64,000 nucleotides of DNA, taken from assembly GCF_050320075.1 (NCBI RefSeq), contig NZ_CP190022.1; one strand, written 5' to 3'. Below, in pieces: positions 16,455 to 64,000 of the stretch. The translations under genes were made by a program, and so were the position numbers. The notes below the pieces were generated by a model that worked only from the letters and a program-made list of their open reading frames with translations, did no database searches and was not told where the DNA came from. Source of the stretch: Escherichia coli (GTDB taxonomy: Bacteria > Pseudomonadota > Gammaproteobacteria > Enterobacterales > Enterobacteriaceae). Numbering within the stretch: position 1 is the first letter of the stretch; each line of letters opens with the position of its first letter.

Positions 16455-18011
16455 TTGTACAGGAAAATGACTGGCGTGTCTTGTATTAAAGAAAAATCAA
16501 AATATACTTTTGAGAGAGCAAAACAGTTTTATTTTATGTTGTGGTGTAAAGAGTCACTGATTTATCTGTTGTTTTCTGTGCTTGTTACATGGTGTTGCGG
16601 ATATACAGTGAAAAACACCCTGGGGAATGTGCTTATATTGTTCCTGATGTTGTTGTTGGGGCGGCAGAATGTTATTTCAGCAACGTGTGTCTGTATCTTT
16701 CTTTTGTTAAGTGCATTCTATGCTCCGGTTGGGATGATTTACGGAAAAATAAACAACAGTTTTATTGCGTCTGTAATGCAGACAAATCTAAATGAGGCAG
16801 GTGAATTTATCACAGGCATACCTGTTCTTTATTTTATTGTTTCACTGATTATTGCTGCTTTTACATTCTGGTTCTGGCGTAAGCGTGATAAAAGCCACCA
16901 GGGATTTATCTTTCTGTTGTTCTTTATCGTATTGTCAGTAAATGCATGGCCAAAACGTATGGTTACGAATGTAATGACAGGGATAGCTGAAACCAGAGAA
17001 GAAATGATGCGATATGAATCGCTGAAACACAATCAGAAAGATTCATGGGATATTGTGAATGTGGAGAAGAAATATAAAACCATAATTATCGTAATTGGTG
17101 AAAGTGTCAGACGGGATTATCTTTCTGTTTATGGGTATCCTTTGCCGACAACACCATGGTTGAATTCTGCTCCGGGTATATTTATTAATGGGTATTTCTC
17201 CGCAGCTCCGAATACGATAGGTTCACTCAGCAGAACACTGACTCTTGATTACACTGAAACAGGTAATCCGGGTAATAATATTGTTACGCTTGCCAGAAAA
17301 GCCGGATATGAGACGTGGTGGATATCAAATCAGGGCTCTTTAGGGCGACATGATACGCTGATTTCTGTCATCGCCGCCAATGCGGATAAGAAATATTTTC
17401 TTAAGGAAGGGAGCTCTTCTTCCCGTCGCATTGATGATGAAGATATGCTTCAGTATGTCAGGGAAGCTGTTAATTCGTCTTCTCCAAAAGTGATTTTCAT
17501 TCATATGCTGGGGTCCCATCCTAATCCCTGTGACAGACTTTTTAATGATGCACAGCCGTTCAGGGAATTATTCGGAAATAAAGTATCCTGTTATTTATCA
17601 ACATTGCTTAAGCTGGATCGGTTTCTTCAGGCAATTTATAACATGACGACAGAGCATGGCGATGATTTTGCCATGCTGTATTTTTCTGATCATGGGCAAT
17701 CCGTCACTTCAGACAGCACCCCTGTGCATCATGCGCCAGGTTTGCGTTCGGGATACGATGTACCTCTCATGATGATGGCCAGTGATATTACTGAGCACCA
17801 CCTCAATCATGTGCATATCAGTGCACGTCGTTTTCCCGAGATTTTTCAATGGATCACAGGGATACAAACCAAAAATCTGCCGTTAAGTTTTTCTTTGTTA
17901 CAGAATGATTTCGCTGAAAGTGTTTCTGTATTCAATGGTGAACGTGACGTTCCGGTAATGTCTTTGCCAGAAGAGCCGATACTGACCGGAAATGCTGAAT
18001 CAGAAAAATAA
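16455..18011 (+). CDS. Phosphoethanolamine-transferase-family (sulfatase-fold) inner membrane protein
   Basis: N-terminal TM helices, then IIIVIGESVRRDYLSVYGY, FIHMLGSHPNP and FSDHGQS motifs resembling EptA/LptA-type enzymes; low GC; exact start uncertain. Confidence 0.6.
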   Translation: MYRKMTGVSCIKEKSKYTFERAKQFYFMLWCKESLIYLLFSVLVTWCCGYTVKNTLGNVLILFLMLLLGRQNVISATCVCIFLLLSAFYAPVGMIYGKINNSFIASVMQTNLNEAGEFITGIPVLYFIVSLIIAAFTFWFWRKRDKSHQGFIFLLFFIVLSVNAWPKRMVTNVMTGIAETREEMMRYESLKHNQKDSWDIVNVEKKYKTIIIVIGESVRRDYLSVYGYPLPTTPWLNSAPGIFINGYFSAAPNTIGSLSRTLTLDYTETGNPGNNIVTLARKAGYETWWISNQGSLGRHDTLISVIAANADKKYFLKEGSSSSRRIDDEDMLQYVREAVNSSSPKVIFIHMLGSHPNPCDRLFNDAQPFRELFGNKVSCYLSTLLKLDRFLQAIYNMTTEHGDDFAMLYFSDHGQSVTSDSTPVHHAPGLRSGYDVPLMMMASDITEHHLNHVHISARRFPEIFQWITGIQTKNLPLSFSLLQNDFAESVSVFNGERDVPVMSLPEEPILTGNAESEK

Positions 18012-41802: not shown

Positions 41803-43005
41803 TCAGAATGTGAACTGCAGTTGTGCAACGGCACCGTAGTTGTTGTCTGTGCCTGCTATACCCGCCACATCAATATGGACGACATCAAATGGTGAGATAC
41901 CCAGCCCGGCGGTGAACGCACTGTCATCATTGCTGGCCAGATTCTGGCGGTAGCCTGCACGTAACTGTGCCCATTTCCAGGCATTAAATTCAGCACCAAT
42001 GGCAGCAAACTGACGTTTACTGTCTGATGTGAAGCCACTGGCCGGGGTCAGGTCAACATCCAGTGCTGTAGTGAACATGTCGTTGTGCCAGGAGACACCG
42101 GCAGTCACCTGCGGGCGGATCCTGAAAGTTTCAGTGACACCATGTACCTCTTTGGTCTCAATGCTGCGTGGGATCAGGTTCTGTGCGACCAGACCCAGCG
42201 TCCAGTTGTCATCCAGGTCCATGCTGGCACCGATATCAGCGTTAATACCGTTTTGGGTGTTGTGGTAACGGTTACCTTTGAATGCGCTGCTGTCATAGTT
42301 TTTGATCAGCGTATTGTAGTTAAACAGGTCAACACGCTGGAATTTTGGTGTGAAGCCCAGTGACCATTTTTGTCCGGCCGTTTCCAGTTCAGTGGCCAGC
42401 GCAACGCCCACATCGGTGATCAGTGCGGCACGGGCAAAAGCCTGTGAGGTCAGTCTGTTTTTATCCACATCCTGGCTGCCACTGTCTGCAATGCTTTCCA
42501 GATAGTTCAGGTCGGCATCGCTGACTTTACCGTCGACGCTGACAGTCCCGAACGTTTTCAGCATCAGTGCAGCAGCGAGGGTATCACCGGGAAGGGCCGC
42601 CACAGCAGATGTTCCCACCTGTGCGTCAGCATGCGTGTGACGGAAGTCCTGAAGTCGCGTCTTCAGACGTGCAGCAGTCTGCGACACGTTGCTCTGACTG
42701 TCGATGGCACGATCAAAGGCTTTCCAGTCATCGCTGATTTTGTCGGCGTTGTCGGCGATATTACCCGGATCGGACAGCTGCGCACCCACGGACGGAAGCA
42801 GAAGACTGAAGTCATCTTTTGCACCGGATTTTGTCAGCAGTGCCGGGTTTGCCAGTGGGGCCACACCATAGTGAGAGGAGGCTACCCCGGTTCCCCCCAT
42901 TGCATCATTGCGGGCTTCAAAATATGAAGTTGCGGCTGTTGAATTAAAGGAAAATAAAACAGCAGATGCGATGAGAGTTCGGGTAATGTGCATATTCATC
43001 ATCAT
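41803..43005 (-). CDS. FadL/OmpP1-family outer membrane beta-barrel protein
   Basis: Signal peptide MMMNMHITRTLIASAVLFSFNSTAA; N-terminal NPALL motif; C-terminal ...AVAQLQFTF ending in Phe. Confidence 0.55.
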   Translation of the reverse strand: MMMNMHITRTLIASAVLFSFNSTAATSYFEARNDAMGGTGVASSHYGVAPLANPALLTKSGAKDDFSLLLPSVGAQLSDPGNIADNADKISDDWKAFDRAIDSQSNVSQTAARLKTRLQDFRHTHADAQVGTSAVAALPGDTLAAALMLKTFGTVSVDGKVSDADLNYLESIADSGSQDVDKNRLTSQAFARAALITDVGVALATELETAGQKWSLGFTPKFQRVDLFNYNTLIKNYDSSAFKGNRYHNTQNGINADIGASMDLDDNWTLGLVAQNLIPRSIETKEVHGVTETFRIRPQVTAGVSWHNDMFTTALDVDLTPASGFTSDSKRQFAAIGAEFNAWKWAQLRAGYRQNLASNDDSAFTAGLGISPFDVVHIDVAGIAGTDNNYGAVAQLQFTF

Positions 43006-59377: not shown

Positions 59378-60448
59378 TTATTCCTGCGGACGGTCTGTCA
59401 CCCGCAGCAGACATTGTGCTGTACTGGTCCGGGCATACAGCGGTTTTTCTGCCGGGGTGTAGAGTGCGAAGAGCTGCTCCAGCGCCTGGCGGAAACTGCC
59501 GGTGAAAACCAGAGGAGCATCGATGCTGTAGTTGACAGGTGTTTCCCAGCGCAGTGTCCATGTGCCGTGCGGGCATTTTTCGGATGATGTCCAGCGGGCC
59601 AGTCCGTCTTTCAGGGTGGTCCCCTTTTCCATTTTCCATTGCCGTGGCGGTATGACCTTCTGCGGTGGTGGCACTACCGGTTTCGTGGCCACCGGGGCTG
59701 GCGTGGTTGTTCTGCTCTCTGGTGTTCCGGATGCCCCGGTGGTGGTCTGAGCCCGGGATACGCTGACGGCAGGTGTCACTGGTGTCGGGCCTGCCGGCGT
59801 TGCGGTGCTGCCCCTGAACGGATTACGCGGTGTATCAGCAGCTTTCTGTGAACCCTGCGGTGCCGTGACGTCGACCGGCGGTGTTGCAGAGGTCGTGACA
59901 GTCAGTATTTTCCTGTTCCAGTCCATATGTCCGTAAAGCTGCTGGCCGGCCAGCAGCGCATTCAGTGCCCGGTGCCACTGGTCATTAACGGACCAGGAAG
60001 GGAGGCGTTTGTTCAGTGCCGGTGTGGCGGCATTCTGCTGGCGGAACTGCCAGCCGGTTGGCAGCAGCTGGCGTATCCAGTCACTGACGGTGCGCTGACG
60101 TGCTTCACGTAAATAAACGACGGATGAGGGACCGGGCTTACCGGTCATAACCAGTGCAGACAGCGGTGTGGCCTGAAGAAGCGGGCGGGGAGGCAGTGCG
60201 GTACTCTGGCTGCTGACAGTGGTTGAGGGTGTCGCCGTTGTTGTCGGACGGGGCGGTGTCACAGGGCGGGTCACCGGTGGCGGAAGCAGACGTTTTTGCG
60301 TATGGGTGATAATGGCAGCACTTTCGCGAATTTGTCCGTCGACGAACACCAGAGCCGGAGGCGTGGTGTCAGGAACAGGCGTGGCATTAAATGCCGTACA
60401 GCCGCTGAGTAATGACGGCAGAAGGAGTGTCAGTGATTTCTTTTGCAT
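59378..60448 (-). CDS. pilL: PilL lipoprotein
   Basis: 356 aa; lipobox LLSGC; Pro/Thr-rich linkers. Confidence 0.6.
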   Translation of the reverse strand: MQKKSLTLLLPSLLSGCTAFNATPVPDTTPPALVFVDGQIRESAAIITHTQKRLLPPPVTRPVTPPRPTTTATPSTTVSSQSTALPPRPLLQATPLSALVMTGKPGPSSVVYLREARQRTVSDWIRQLLPTGWQFRQQNAATPALNKRLPSWSVNDQWHRALNALLAGQQLYGHMDWNRKILTVTTSATPPVDVTAPQGSQKAADTPRNPFRGSTATPAGPTPVTPAVSVSRAQTTTGASGTPESRTTTPAPVATKPVVPPPQKVIPPRQWKMEKGTTLKDGLARWTSSEKCPHGTWTLRWETPVNYSIDAPLVFTGSFRQALEQLFALYTPAEKPLYARTSTAQCLLRVTDRPQE

Positions 60449-60510
60449 AGAATATAATCCGGTATATTACGGGTTACGGTATAAGACAGGTGGCGGGTAA
60501 CTGGCCTTAA

Positions 60511-60828
60511 GTGGAACTGCTCAGGAAAATGATGACAGATTCATTATTAGGGTGCTCAGTAGGATATGTGTTTTCGAAAATACTGAAGATATCCTTTCTG
60601 CGTTTTATTCAGTCTGAGGGGGGATGGGATATTATTACTTACTTTTTGTGGATGCTGGGAATGCTTATTGTCATGGCCGTGCTGTTTATCTGGATGTGCG
60701 CCGCTGTATGCTATGAGCTTCGGATGTATAAAATAAAAACAGGAAGGGAGAACGATATATTATTCTGGGTGTGGATTCTTCTTTTTGATGTCGCGGTTGT
60801 ATTTTCGCTGGGTAATGTTATCTGGTGA
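60511..60828 (+). CDS. Hypothetical small membrane protein (105 aa), low GC
   Basis: Two hydrophobic helices; stop codon directly abuts the stop of the convergent minus-strand ORF. Confidence 0.35.
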   Translation: MELLRKMMTDSLLGCSVGYVFSKILKISFLRFIQSEGGWDIITYFLWMLGMLIVMAVLFIWMCAAVCYELRMYKIKTGRENDILFWVWILLFDVAVVFSLGNVIW

Positions 60829-61260
60829 TTATGGGTTCAGTGACATATGGAAAAAGATAAGTGCGAACATTGATACTGAAGAATAATATATCCACGAATA
60901 GAAAAACATGAATTTCGGAGATGGTTTCTTCTGTCTCCTGTTTTTCAGGGGAGTCTGTGGGTCAAATGTTATCAGCGTCATTAAAGGATACCCTTTCATA
61001 AGAATAAAAATATAGACGCATAAATGAACGTAAAGAGGTAACCTGTCCTGCCAGAACAGAATCATCATGATGACGGCAAGATGAAATGTCGTTACATTGA
61101 TATAATAAAACCAGCTGTATTTACGCAGATACTGTTGGATATTCACGCTGTCAGCATGCGGTTCTGGTGAACAATTTATGCAAAAACAGAAGAAAGAAAT
61201 GATGATGAACACGGTCAGAGTGACCGGTAATACAGTCACAAGCAGAAAGAGTATGGACAT
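60829..61260 (-). CDS. Hypothetical polytopic membrane protein (143 aa), low GC
   Basis: Four hydrophobic segments; occupies the position upstream of pilL. Confidence 0.4.
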   Translation of the reverse strand: MSILFLLVTVLPVTLTVFIIISFFCFCINCSPEPHADSVNIQQYLRKYSWFYYINVTTFHLAVIMMILFWQDRLPLYVHLCVYIFILMKGYPLMTLITFDPQTPLKNRRQKKPSPKFMFFYSWIYYSSVSMFALIFFHMSLNP

Positions 61261-61332
61261 AAAAATATCTCCGTCAGGATAGTGTGATTATTCCTTTATG
61301 GTTCCATAACCCGGCGTAGCTCCGTCGACTGG

Positions 61333-61713
61333 TTATAATTTTATCCGGGACCTGGCTTTAAGGGGTAATGCCACCTCTTTCCATTCACTACAGCTTCCGG
61401 GAATACGTTCTGTGCGTCGTATTATTCGTGTGTTCTGGCATACAATAATCAGGGCATTGTCTGCCGTCTGAAAAGGCATAATCGCAATGTTAATATCTTC
61501 TGTTGCCGGGATACAGATGACTTTCTTTTCACATGTATTGGTGTATATGACAACTCTGAATTTTTCTGCGGACATTTTCAATCCTCTTTTAAACCAGAAT
61601 ATCCCGTGAGGGCATTCTTTGTGAAAAAGTTCTGTGGACTTCTCTATGACGGCAGGTAATGCATCCAGCAGGGCAAGACGGAAGCGGAGGCTGGTCTGCT
61701 CATCCGAAAGCAC
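61333..61713 (-). CDS. Hypothetical protein (126 aa)
   Basis: ORF between the regulator genes and the pil operon. Confidence 0.35.
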   Translation of the reverse strand: MLSDEQTSLRFRLALLDALPAVIEKSTELFHKECPHGIFWFKRGLKMSAEKFRVVIYTNTCEKKVICIPATEDINIAIMPFQTADNALIIVCQNTRIIRRTERIPGSCSEWKEVALPLKARSRIKL

Positions 61714-61851
61714 GTTAATGGCATCGTTCAGTGCGCGCTGTGCTTCTGCTTCTGCCAGACCTTTCTGACGGGTGGCCTCCGCCAGTTCAATAATTGCTGC
61801 TGCCTGGAGAAGTCAGCGGAGAGTGGCTGCTGTTGTGGCTGTCCCGGTATT

Positions 61852-62517
61852 TCAGTGTAACAGGTGATTGCTGTGATCTATGCCCCATTCGGCTTTCGGT
61901 AAACCTGAATGCCCCACATGAAGAATGCGTGACAGCATGTTTCTGCCGCTGCCGTTCAGGCTGCATTCGCGTCCGTGCGCGAGTATAAAACCTTCATCCC
62001 GGAATATCTCTTCCACTTCTGAAGATTCGAGGGATGCCGGATGAATTAATGAAAATGCCACCGGTCTGAGCATTCTGCCCGTGGTGGAAAAGGTGTCTCT
62101 GGTACTGTTCAGCTGCAGGATATGACGTTTACCTGTTTGCGCACGGGAAAGTGTCTCACTCAGCAGCTGGTCGTTCCATGCGCACGTGCCAATCTGCCAT
62201 CCCAGACTTCGGCACGCGGAAAGAGCCGAGCGGAAGCGGTACAGGTCGTATAATGCTGCGTTATTGCCACTTTCCAGCAGTGATTTCAGCGTATTTGCTA
62301 CCGGTATGTCCGTATTAGTGGCCAGCAGTTTTCGCAGAGTCGTAAACTCTTCTGCCATTCCTCTGAACTCGCGCATCTGACGGGCAGTGTCAAGCCAGTT
62401 CAGCAGGTAACGCCGGCGACGCCGTTCGTTGTTTATGTTGTCCGGGGCGGTGGAGAGTGCTTCGAGCATATTCTCCAGTAACAGAATGACAGGGTTTTCC
62501 TGGGATAGAATGGTCAT
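61852..62517 (-). CDS. Hypothetical protein (221 aa), possible transfer regulator (TraC position)
   Basis: ORF downstream of the NusG-like gene; named by position only. Confidence 0.45.
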   Translation of the reverse strand: MTILSQENPVILLLENMLEALSTAPDNINNERRRRRYLLNWLDTARQMREFRGMAEEFTTLRKLLATNTDIPVANTLKSLLESGNNAALYDLYRFRSALSACRSLGWQIGTCAWNDQLLSETLSRAQTGKRHILQLNSTRDTFSTTGRMLRPVAFSLIHPASLESSEVEEIFRDEGFILAHGRECSLNGSGRNMLSRILHVGHSGLPKAEWGIDHSNHLLH

Positions 62518-62657
62518 AAAGGCGTCCTGAAAAAATGCCCGACAGCCGCTCTCCGTACACCCTCAGGTGTCACCGGTGCCGGGCATTGTGGAAACAGAAG
62601 GGAAAAAAATCCCGGCCATAAAGGCCGGGAAAAGTCGTCAAATTAAGACAGCAATTT

Positions 62658-63299
62658 TCATGTCAACGCTCCGTCATCAGATACCAGGTGCAGGAGCAGG
62701 GCGATCCTCGACTCCGGCAGAGGCTGTGCATCAAGCCGGAGGAGGTACTGGTAACGCGCTTTTGTCAGCCAGAGGGTGGAGGCAGCATCCAGCTCCTCCC
62801 TGGCTGCCGGATTGAGCGCAGGATCCGGGTACACTTTCATTAAAGACTGAACGATATCCTCCCTGACGGTTTTGATTTCACCGGCCATTTTCACGAAGCC
62901 CAGAAAGGCACTGTGACGGCGCAGGTGAGTGAAAGCGTGGCGTTCGGGGTCTGCTTTCAGGAAGAAGTAACCGGGAAACACGGCGTGTATATGTCGACGG
63001 TAACCACAGACTTTATCCGTGCGGCGGACTTTTTTCAGTATCAGGGGTGTCCAGGGAAGGACGTGTTGTTCGGAAAGCCAGGAAAAGAGATGTTCGCGGT
63101 TTTTGCCGGCAGGGATGTACTGAGCCAGATACCAGTTGCGTTGATGTAATTCACTGATATTCAAAATCCGGAACGCTCCGCGAAAATCGATCCCCGCAGG
63201 GGGGCTTCGATGTTGTTGTGAACGGCGAATACATAAAGCATGTGTCGGAAACAGCGGCTGACCCACGTTCAGCCCGGCCTGCAGTTCTGACAGGCACAT
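62658..63299 (-). CDS. traB: NusG/RfaH-like transcription antiterminator (TraB-like)
   Basis: NWYLAQYIPAGKNREHLFSWL...HAVFPGYFFLKAD resembles the NusG N-terminal domain; true start probably internal. Confidence 0.55.
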   Translation of the reverse strand: MCLSELQAGLNVGQPLFPTHALCIRRSQQHRSPPAGIDFRGAFRILNISELHQRNWYLAQYIPAGKNREHLFSWLSEQHVLPWTPLILKKVRRTDKVCGYRRHIHAVFPGYFFLKADPERHAFTHLRRHSAFLGFVKMAGEIKTVREDIVQSLMKVYPDPALNPAAREELDAASTLWLTKARYQYLLRLDAQPLPESRIALLLHLVSDDGALT

Positions 63300-63846
63300 G
63301 ATTTACGCACTCTTGTAAGCCTTGTGGACGGTTTCGAGGCGGGCGAAAACCGACAACTCCTGCAAACAGGATTAATGGCTGGAAAATATATTACATAAGG
63401 ATGTATCTGTGGCAAGAGTTAATATAAGTAGTTGAATAGATCGTTATATTTGATAAATCAGCATATCATGCTGATTTGTGTGCAGTGTCTGGAGGATTAG
63501 ATCGTTTAAAAATTTTAGGCGATCTCTTCTACTAAAAATGATGAAAAATACAGCATAAAAGATCGTTTGTGAAATTGTTCATTTTTTGACACAGTTCAAA
63601 AAAACGACGCTTTTTCGGGGAGTTAAAGAGGGCCACTGTAACCCTGAGAAATCATGTCGGCTTTTCAAAGCGGTGGAAAAGGGGTATATTGCGGATCGTT
63701 ATGCAGTGGCTTTTGGGATCGTCAGGATCCGGGAAGTCAGAAAACGGCAGGATGCGCCATAAGGCATTCAGGACGTATGGCAGAAACGACGGCAGTTTGC
63801 CGGTGCCGGAAGGCTGAAAAAAGTTTCAGAAGGCCATAAAGGAAAA

Positions 63847-63897
63847 CCCCCACTATCTTTCGTCGAACTTTGGCGGGATCGTGAAAGATAGTGGGGG
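63847..63897. promoter_or_regulatory. Stem-loop with TTGGCG loop motif: candidate structure I / Inc RNA control element of an I-complex replicon
   Basis: Perfect 15-bp stem cccccactatctttc / gaaagatagtggggg around a 21-nt loop containing ttggcg. Confidence 0.5.
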
Positions 63898-64000
63898 CCT
63901 CACAGAATACGGGATAAGTATATATGAAACCGTGTCAGAGATTCAACCCTTTGCAGTGCATTAACGCACGGCAATTTGTTCCCGCCATAAGCGACAGCTT

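Follow-up and report, generated by a model that had tools for sequence, protein, structure and literature searches.

A conserved structured leader and terminator around traB of an I-complex plasmid suggest a TraB-dependent switch for conjugation genes

We analysed a 64,000-nt stretch of Escherichia coli DNA (the window), with emphasis on a minus-strand open reading frame (ORF) of 213 aa at 62658-63299. This ORF is traB of an IncK2/Z-type I-complex conjugative plasmid, and its product is a specialised NusG paralogue of the RfaH/PrfaH type; that much is already known, and the gene call itself adds nothing new. The best explanation of our findings, to which we assign a probability of roughly 0.7, couples this identity to a TraB-dependent feed-forward switch that would run from a conserved, structured leader in front of traB to a terminator directly behind it. 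As far as literature searches show, this leader-and-terminator module has not been described, and it is directly testable. Its elements are the following:

63165..63318, minus strand: structured traB leader of ~150 nt, defined by conservation and covariation in 11 plasmid lineages
63227..63312, minus strand: helix I, a long irregular hairpin (helices 1-3; 29 pairs, 18 with changes on both sides)
63184..63209, minus strand: hairpin II, CGAAGCCCC-CCTGC-GGGGATCG (helices 4-5; 8 pairs, 93-96% paired, 3 compensatory)
63172..63182, minus strand: nearly invariant ops-like block CGCGGAGCGTT (invariant alignment columns; highest identity of the leader, 0.77)
62658..63164, minus strand: traB as revised, 168 aa, with a probable TTG start at 63164 and a TGA stop at 62658-62660 (NGN match, alignment of the family start MNI, AlphaFold2, Foldseek, codon test)
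62603..62630, minus strand: intrinsic terminator, TCCCGGCC-TTTAT-GGCCGGGA followed by T7 (-19.9 kcal/mol; 28 nt past the traB stop codon)

Between 60400 and 64000 the window is 100% identical to the E. coli plasmid NZ_MG825371.1 (3.6 kb), which is typed IncK2/Z, MOBP and MPF_I; the remainder aligns at ~98.6% identity with the shufflon rearranged, and the window is a very close relative of this plasmid. Since identity is complete only around traB, gene positions elsewhere were re-checked on the window's own ORFs. The GenBank annotation of this near-identical record lists a 'transcription termination/antitermination NusG family protein', then 'traC', then a 'PilI type IV pilus biogenesis protein'. 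The same best-matching record is named 'IncFII', yet typed IncK2/Z. The gene order of I-complex TraB is present, with replicon, traB, traC and pil genes in succession on an MPF_I/MOBP plasmid. TraB is 96-99% identical to annotated IncB/O/K/Z proteins and 63-65% identical, over the 168-aa core, to its orthologues on the IncI1 plasmids R64, ColIb-P9, pESBL and pESI. The family is narrow, with 54 cluster representatives at E<=1e-3 among 1.84 billion, and its homologues occur on 2336 of 72,556 plasmid records, mostly conjugative. Reviews place TraB among the NusG paralogues (PMC6391919), R64 TraB has been named a PrfaH homologue, and 45% of plasmids with annotated nusG-family genes belong to the I-complex (PMC11880322).

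A sequence-only reading of this DNA had proposed a NusG N-terminal-domain-like core (NWYLAQY...FPGYFFLKAD) in the 213-aa ORF. The motif is there, and Pfam NGN (PF02357) matches aa 55-153 above its gathering score (24.8 bits against 22.2, E=3.1e-5); NGN likewise matched 30 of the 30 family members scanned (best E=2.8e-9). [quoted passage not shown] Among NCBIfam models those for RfaH matched TraB best (E=4e-9). Scores for the RfaH equivalogs TIGR01955 and NF006534 (35.6 and 36.5 bits) lay far below the cut-offs of 144.5 and 124, and that for LoaP (NF033641, 21.3 bits) lay below its cut-off of 125. Judged by these scores, TraB is an RfaH-like paralogue, not an RfaH orthologue.

Structural comparisons agreed with this placement. 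The best match of TraB among solved structures, using the single sequence, was 9ik0, the PrfaH of IncX3 (E=2.9e-7), with E. coli RfaH next over both domains, and a TraB family profile matched both domains of PrfaH 9ik0 at 4e-14 and of RfaH at 2e-7, but housekeeping NusG only at 1.6e-3. An AlphaFold2 model built from 42 sequences (predicted local distance difference test, 84; predicted template modelling score, 0.79) shows the NGN domain followed by three helices at 119-129, 135-146 and 150-162, so that the C-terminal domain (residues 119-162) is predicted to be all-helical as in autoinhibited RfaH. Foldseek ranked RfaH:ops 5ond first (E=4e-10, template modelling score 0.77), then PrfaH 9ik0 and autoinhibited RfaH on paused RNA polymerase (8pfg), with RfaH 2oug also matched; these RfaH and PrfaH matches span ~156 columns. 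By fold and profile comparison, TraB stands beside RfaH and PrfaH rather than housekeeping NusG.

We also examined where TraB begins. Three minus-strand ORFs are open, at 62658-63299 (213 aa), 61852-62517 (221 aa) and 61333-61713 (126 aa), and the boundaries of two of them, the 213-aa and 126-aa ORFs, are over-extended. In an alignment of 30 homologues, the family start M-N-I- falls on L46 of the 213-aa ORF, which is the TTG at 63164, and upstream extensions, where present, are unrelated between lineages. DNA alignments of the 11 lineages upstream of this TTG contain indels of 1, 5 and 6 nt, some of them not multiples of 3. Coding selection was tested by comparing the window to an 81%-identical relative that retains the long frame:

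Codons 1-45: differences at codon positions 1/2/3 of 7/11/10; 2 synonymous, 16 non-synonymous
Codons 46-213: differences at codon positions 1/2/3 of 16/7/58; 45 synonymous, 25 non-synonymous
63165..63299, minus strand: 45-codon in-frame extension, also called by NCBI's annotation pipeline (PGAP); most likely untranslated leader (unconserved, frame-breaking indels, codon test)

The contrast between the two segments is significant (Fisher p=5e-5), indicating that the first 45 codons are not under coding selection; the real start of TraB is therefore most likely TTG 63164, as read from sequence comparison, and the product 168 aa. We regard it as very improbable that the IncB/O/K/Z clade really makes the 213-aa protein, with 45 extra residues at its N terminus. 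Relatives at 96% and 81% identity keep the long frame open, as does this plasmid, and the 213-aa version is annotated by PGAP; however, PGAP also annotates the 168-aa version (623 sequences), substitution in codons 1-45 is non-coding in character and lacks a third-position bias, every other lineage starts at the MNI position, ATG 63299 has no ribosome-binding site upstream, and the extension coincides with a paired RNA structure that is conserved across lineages despite the frame-breaking indels. Thus the open frame taken up by the sequence-only reading stands, its product is probably shorter by the extension, and a widespread mis-annotation (213 aa annotated, probably 168 aa made) is corrected.

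The region in front of the revised start is as conserved as coding sequence, with a mean pairwise identity of 0.48-0.77 as compared to ~0.3 further upstream, and this conservation spans plasmids from Escherichia, Salmonella, Citrobacter, Leclercia, Enterobacter, Mixta and Pectobacterium, which show only 46-65% identity in TraB. Its structure was derived with RNAalifold, and pairing was counted on the alignment against controls in which partners were slid by 1-3 columns and against 500 shuffles. Over 41 pairs, 91% of cells were paired, compared to 34-40% in the slid controls, and 21 pairs carried compensatory changes, compared to 4-9; none of the 500 shuffles reached any of the observed measures. 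The restriction of G-U pairs to the sense strand indicates that it is as RNA that the structure is read. In Rfam 15, nothing matched within 63165-63318 at E<=1, and real matches in 60000-64000 were confined to PK-repZ and a CopA-like RNA at 63839-63988.

ATG 63299, from which the probably spurious 213-aa frame opens, is in the 5' arm of helix I. We considered, and rejected, a small upstream ORF conserved within the leader: the conserved ATG is explained by helix I pairing, and the lengths and frames of such ORFs vary between lineages. Hairpin II lies at -45 to -20 from the start codon, folds in 4 lineages and, in lineages other than this one, reads GAATTATCC...GGATCAATTC; it may act in the nascent RNA as a pause hairpin, or else serve for recognition. 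Its 3' arm includes a conserved GATC, the site of Dam methylation (63188-63191, minus strand), in the same column in 10 of 11 lineages. The block CGCGGAGCGTT follows 1-2 nt past hairpin II and its GCGT ends 11-12 nt past the hairpin, a spacing that equals the geometry of hairpin-stabilised pauses and of hairpin-assisted ops sites of UpxY (PMC11685472). In other lineages the block reads GCGCG[G/A]AGCGTT; it includes a GGAG ribosome-binding site, and a short hairpin III forms within it (63182-63172).

The leader element is a single-copy feature of the window: an extended 22-mer of the block occurs once, with 0 occurrences expected by chance, and a covariance model of the last 65 leader nt found one copy at 51 bits, the next score being 8.5. 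RNA polymerase pauses at the AGCGT of ops, and the leader block resembles ops at 7 of 12 positions, AGCGT included (GGCGGTAGCGTG compared to GCGCGGAGCGTT). Canonical ops elements as TraB sites were rejected, given that 5 matches with <=1 mismatch on both strands of the window, against 3.7 expected, represent chance frequency and that the exact match is on the wrong strand. This sole exact 12-mer, GGCGGTAGCCTG, is at 41946-41957 on the plus strand, inside traF, on the template strand of tra transcripts. The earlier suggestion of ops-like elements in the leaders of downstream operons thus found no canonical ops on the correct strand, and a 22-mer search allowing 3 mismatches together with an unfiltered covariance scan of the window found no further leader copies before the pil, tra, trb or nik operons.

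IncI1/pESI-type plasmids carry a diverged but complete second copy of the leader upstream of Hft/traA (39.5 bits, E about 1e-9), which is not followed by traB or any conserved ORF. The sequence is unannotated and occurs in 1438 plasmid records, including ColIb-P9. Copies were located at L003:1290-1439 in the pESI-like CP100658.1 and at NC_002122.1:93027-93187 in ColIb-P9, ~330 nt upstream of traA and directly before the region equivalent to pESBL 'Hft'; no second copy was found in other traA-bearing lineages. A leader copy without traB argues for a discrete cis module rather than just a traB ribosome-binding site. Should TraB be recruited as proposed below, the second copy would be another place for TraB to load and might account for the puzzling phenotypes of high-frequency transfer that Hft insertions show.

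A comparable layout is known from PrfaH (ActX, 9ik0) of IncX plasmids, which likewise combines an NGN domain with a two-helix C-terminal domain and whose gene heads transfer genes. The 5' untranslated region of this gene itself holds the PrfaH site, at -42 to -25, with a stem-loop termination signal downstream (PMC11880322); TraB has hairpin II at this place. We confirmed the PrfaH site sequence in an IncX5 leader. For TraB, the corresponding element at -45 to -8 is conserved and unique, a terminator follows the gene, and the role of the element as a site is predicted. Homology of the TraB leader to the IncX site was rejected, as the leader model found nothing in the IncX5 leader and at most CGGGG(A)TC is common to both; the two are positional analogues only. 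The proteins are ~22-30% identical, PrfaH serves a VirB-type type IV secretion system where TraB serves an I-type system plus a type IVb pilus, and IncX PrfaH lacks an adjacent TraC homologue.

At the other end of the module, an intrinsic terminator lies directly 3' of traB in 11 of 11 lineages, its stem sequences differing, and traC follows. Homologues of TraC at 36-42% identity stand behind traB in 10 of 10 other lineages examined, so that traB, terminator and traC form a conserved module. The features between and beyond are:

62530..62586, minus strand: second hairpin, ATGCCCGGCA...TGTCGGGCA, with T6 behind it; 13 nt upstream of the traC start
61852..62517, minus strand: traC, 221 aa; accompanies traB as its conserved partner in every lineage

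The second hairpin is a short version of a long-range covarying stem of other lineages. More generally, the traB-traC spacers (62518-62602 in the window, and those of other lineages) contain a long-range inverted repeat with compensatory changes, e.g. CCGGCAATGACGTCTG...CAGACGTCATTGCCAG, around a conserved centre CCTGCCCGATGAACACCCTCTGTTCC; the window version is shortened and ends in T6. In a minus-strand scan from traB to the end of the array, the only intergenic sites with a strong hairpin and T-run were the two before traC and one 55 nt past excA (~19090), all other such sites falling inside genes. The resulting architecture is leader, traB, terminator, traC, and then pil, shufflon and tra genes to excA, an uninterrupted co-directional array of ~43 kb of which traB is the first transfer-region gene, in line with the earlier view that the ORF heads the transfer regulator genes.

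Upstream, the same reading had described an AT-rich region that probably holds the promoter. The low G+C content was confirmed (34.9% at 63350-63650 compared to 54% in traB), and a promoter in it is plausible:

63319..63838, strand not assigned: AT-rich spacer that separates the traB leader from the replicon control region, 42% G+C (35% at 63350-63650), without traA
63388..63415, minus strand: candidate sigma-70 promoter TTGCCA-16-TAATAT from a consensus scan; its start would be ~65 nt upstream of helix I

How might these parts work together? Tentatively, we suggest that the leader (helix I, hairpin II and CGCGGAGCGTT) and the terminator could constitute a recruitment-and-gate module for the TraB class, beyond which a terminator-resistant polymerase would transcribe traC and the pil/tra array. 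Transcription would start in the AT-rich spacer and cross the structured leader, RNA polymerase would pause at the CGCGGAGCGT block, 11-12 nt past hairpin II, and TraB would load on polymerase at this hairpin-stabilised pause in its own leader. Without TraB, transcripts would stop at the terminator just past the gene, and only TraB would be made; once TraB had accumulated, the modified polymerase would read through the terminator into traC and the co-directional pil-shufflon-tra-excA genes. This would amount to a feed-forward switch with the logic of lambda N/nutL/tL1, which likewise comprises a leader recruitment site, an antiterminator gene and a terminator to overcome; TraB has no homology to N, and its function here is assigned by analogy.

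Genetic findings from related plasmids are consistent with such a role. Deletion of traB in pESI lowered pil transcripts 4-fold and abolished transfer, and its authors noted the similarity to NusG (PMC5013300), while traBC was required in transposon-directed insertion-site sequencing (TraDIS) and transposon sequencing (TnSeq) screens (PMC10286972, PMC4288162). Papers that cite the original work on R64 treat its TraB and TraC as the classical positive regulators for transfer in IncI1 (PMC10286972, PMC4288162, PMC5801416). PrfaH acts after initiation, overcoming a stem-loop signal from the site in its own 5' untranslated region (PMC11880322). The notion of a specialised antiterminator driving the pil and tra operons is therefore upheld as to an RfaH/PrfaH-like fold and as to homologues required for pil/tra expression and for transfer (PMC5013300, PMC10286972, PMC4288162), with antitermination itself inferred. 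The likeness of the block to ops, the spacing from hairpin to GCGT, the position shared with the PrfaH site, the single copy in the window and the second copy in IncI1 together suggest that the leader features point to a recruitment site rather than a translation signal alone. I-complex TraB is essential for transfer, and the leader and terminator would provide a concrete, testable cis target for it, much like the ops-like site lately mapped for PrfaH of IncX, and a defined switch point for turning conjugation on. I-complex plasmids (IncI1 and IncB/O/K/Z) are themselves major carriers of extended-spectrum β-lactamase and AmpC genes.

Several points weigh against the proposed switch. In TraB, P, W, E and S take the places of K10, H20, R23 and R73, the residues with which RfaH reads ops (PMC5995543); W and S are invariant in the family, and the ops resemblance of the leader block is thus not evidence for the same recognition. 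Hairpin II (25 nt) exceeds what an 11-nt transcription bubble can form and so cannot be an ops-type DNA hairpin. The window leader taken as a single sequence folds no better than shuffles (z=-0.19), leaving covariation as the whole case for the leader structure. Because the invariant block holds the GGAG ribosome-binding site, its conservation may be partly translational. RfaH is weak against intrinsic terminators (PMC7819879), so that read-through of a hairpin with T7 would need an activity like that of PrfaH or of LoaP, a NusG paralogue that reads through intrinsic terminators (PMC7819879, PMC12691694). The candidate traB promoter is a consensus match only, of a kind no commoner than in shuffles. 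In pESBL, expression of traB::lacZ was dependent on a 54-bp region as well as on TraA (PMC5801416), which shows additional control at the promoter level, and the published action of traBC in trans on other tra genes could mean targets without the leader.

According to a rival view, which we consider unlikely, TraB together with TraC is a conventional initiation activator at several tra/pil promoters, with the NGN fold used otherwise and the terminator only insulating traB from traC. In older literature cited by PMC10286972 and PMC5801416, the two proteins are named 'positive regulators' that work in trans; TraC, an orphan, is always co-encoded with TraB; and with the leader element occurring once in the window, distant operons that have their own promoters would need another route. 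However, the TraB fold and profile are RfaH/PrfaH-like over both domains, and Pfam and NCBIfam searches, supplemented for TraC by structural comparison, found a DNA-binding domain in neither protein. The IncX homologue moreover leaves promoter activity unchanged and acts after initiation (PMC11880322), and the genes from traC to excA form one uninterrupted co-directional array with no strong intergenic terminator between them.

A different role for the leader, namely post-transcriptional control of traB through exposure of the ribosome-binding site, mRNA stability or a small RNA/Hfq target, unrelated to TraB recruitment, is a possibility that we rate as less than even, though well ahead of a remote one. 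It accommodates the GGAG placed 5-11 nt before the start codon in the invariant block, hairpin III, which puts that GGAG in a small stem-loop, the sense-strand-only G-U pairs, which imply structure at the RNA level, and the weak start codons (TTG, GTG) of traB in several lineages; in addition, the pESBL study refers to preliminary effects of hfq on how traA and traBC are expressed (PMC5801416). It accommodates less well the second IncI1 copy, which cannot serve translation of traB with neither traB nor a conserved ORF behind it, the invariance of the bases flanking GGAG even where GGAG becomes GAAG, and the coincidence in position between the element and the PrfaH site mapped by experiment (PMC11880322). 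Post-transcriptional control and TraB recruitment are not exclusive roles for the leader.

The feed-forward switch can further be set beside other known systems. In IncI1 plasmids too, traB adjoins the replicon and precedes traC and the pil genes, with the same leader in front of it and the same terminator after it. In contrast to their traABCD region, this plasmid lacks traA, traD and Hft, has one leader copy instead of two, starts traB with TTG instead of GTG, and has a traB-traC spacer of 140 nt instead of 253. No remnant of traA or traD was found upstream or downstream of traB, and tblastn with four TraA/LuxR-type proteins found nothing in the spacer upstream of traB. E. coli RfaH resembles TraB in a helical C-terminal hairpin packed on the NGN domain (predicted for TraB) and in an alignment that covers both domains; the C-terminal domain of TraB lacks the KOW glycines and ends ~9 residues earlier, and traB is encoded beside its target whereas RfaH is a lone chromosomal cistron. 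UpxY and UpxZ of Bacteroides provide a parallel: a long operon for a surface structure opens with the genes of a NusG paralogue and its small partner protein, and UpxY recruitment draws on non-template DNA as well as on a leader pause hairpin (PMC11685472). The partners differ in that TraC is needed for transfer, whereas UpxZ acts as an inhibitor of non-cognate UpxY proteins; sequence similarity to either Upx protein was not seen, no search having been aimed at it.

The two further ORFs that had been called unknown are both present and are known genes, traC and pilI. TraC has no relative in Pfam, NCBIfam or the PDB and no convincing structural neighbour. The third ORF starts downstream of its first possible codon:

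61333..61575, minus strand: pilI, 80 aa, first gene of the thin-pilus (type IVb) cluster (Pfam PF10623, PGAP call)

PF10623 (PilI) matches only aa 51-124 of the 126-aa ORF (E=1.9e-31), PGAP annotates PilI in the near-identical GenBank record as 80 aa at 61333-61575, and ATG 61575 has a good ribosome-binding site, AAGAGGA, upstream.

On the far side of the AT-rich spacer, the segment at 63839-63988 holds the Rfam PK-repZ pseudoknot (plus strand, 167 bits) and the CopA-like antisense Inc RNA (minus strand, 41.7 bits, below the gathering score); ~520 bp separate this replication control region of the I-complex from the traB leader. Past the other end of the array, a 518-aa ORF of the phosphoethanolamine-transferase family (16455-18011, plus strand) lies between a nuclease gene and excA. 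It scores far below every NCBIfam cut-off, including all MCR models (best CptA, 108 bits against 404), and is thus not a recognised colistin-resistance gene. Finally, the DNA between pilI and a pilL-like gene of the TcpQ family (60829-61260, minus strand; 60511-60828, plus strand) is AT-rich (37-44% G+C). At 60829-61260, the place that pilJ/pilK occupy in IncI1, it contains a very hydrophobic 143-aa minus-strand ORF for which no family matched; PGAP instead annotates a 105-aa ORF on the opposite strand (60511-60828, plus strand).

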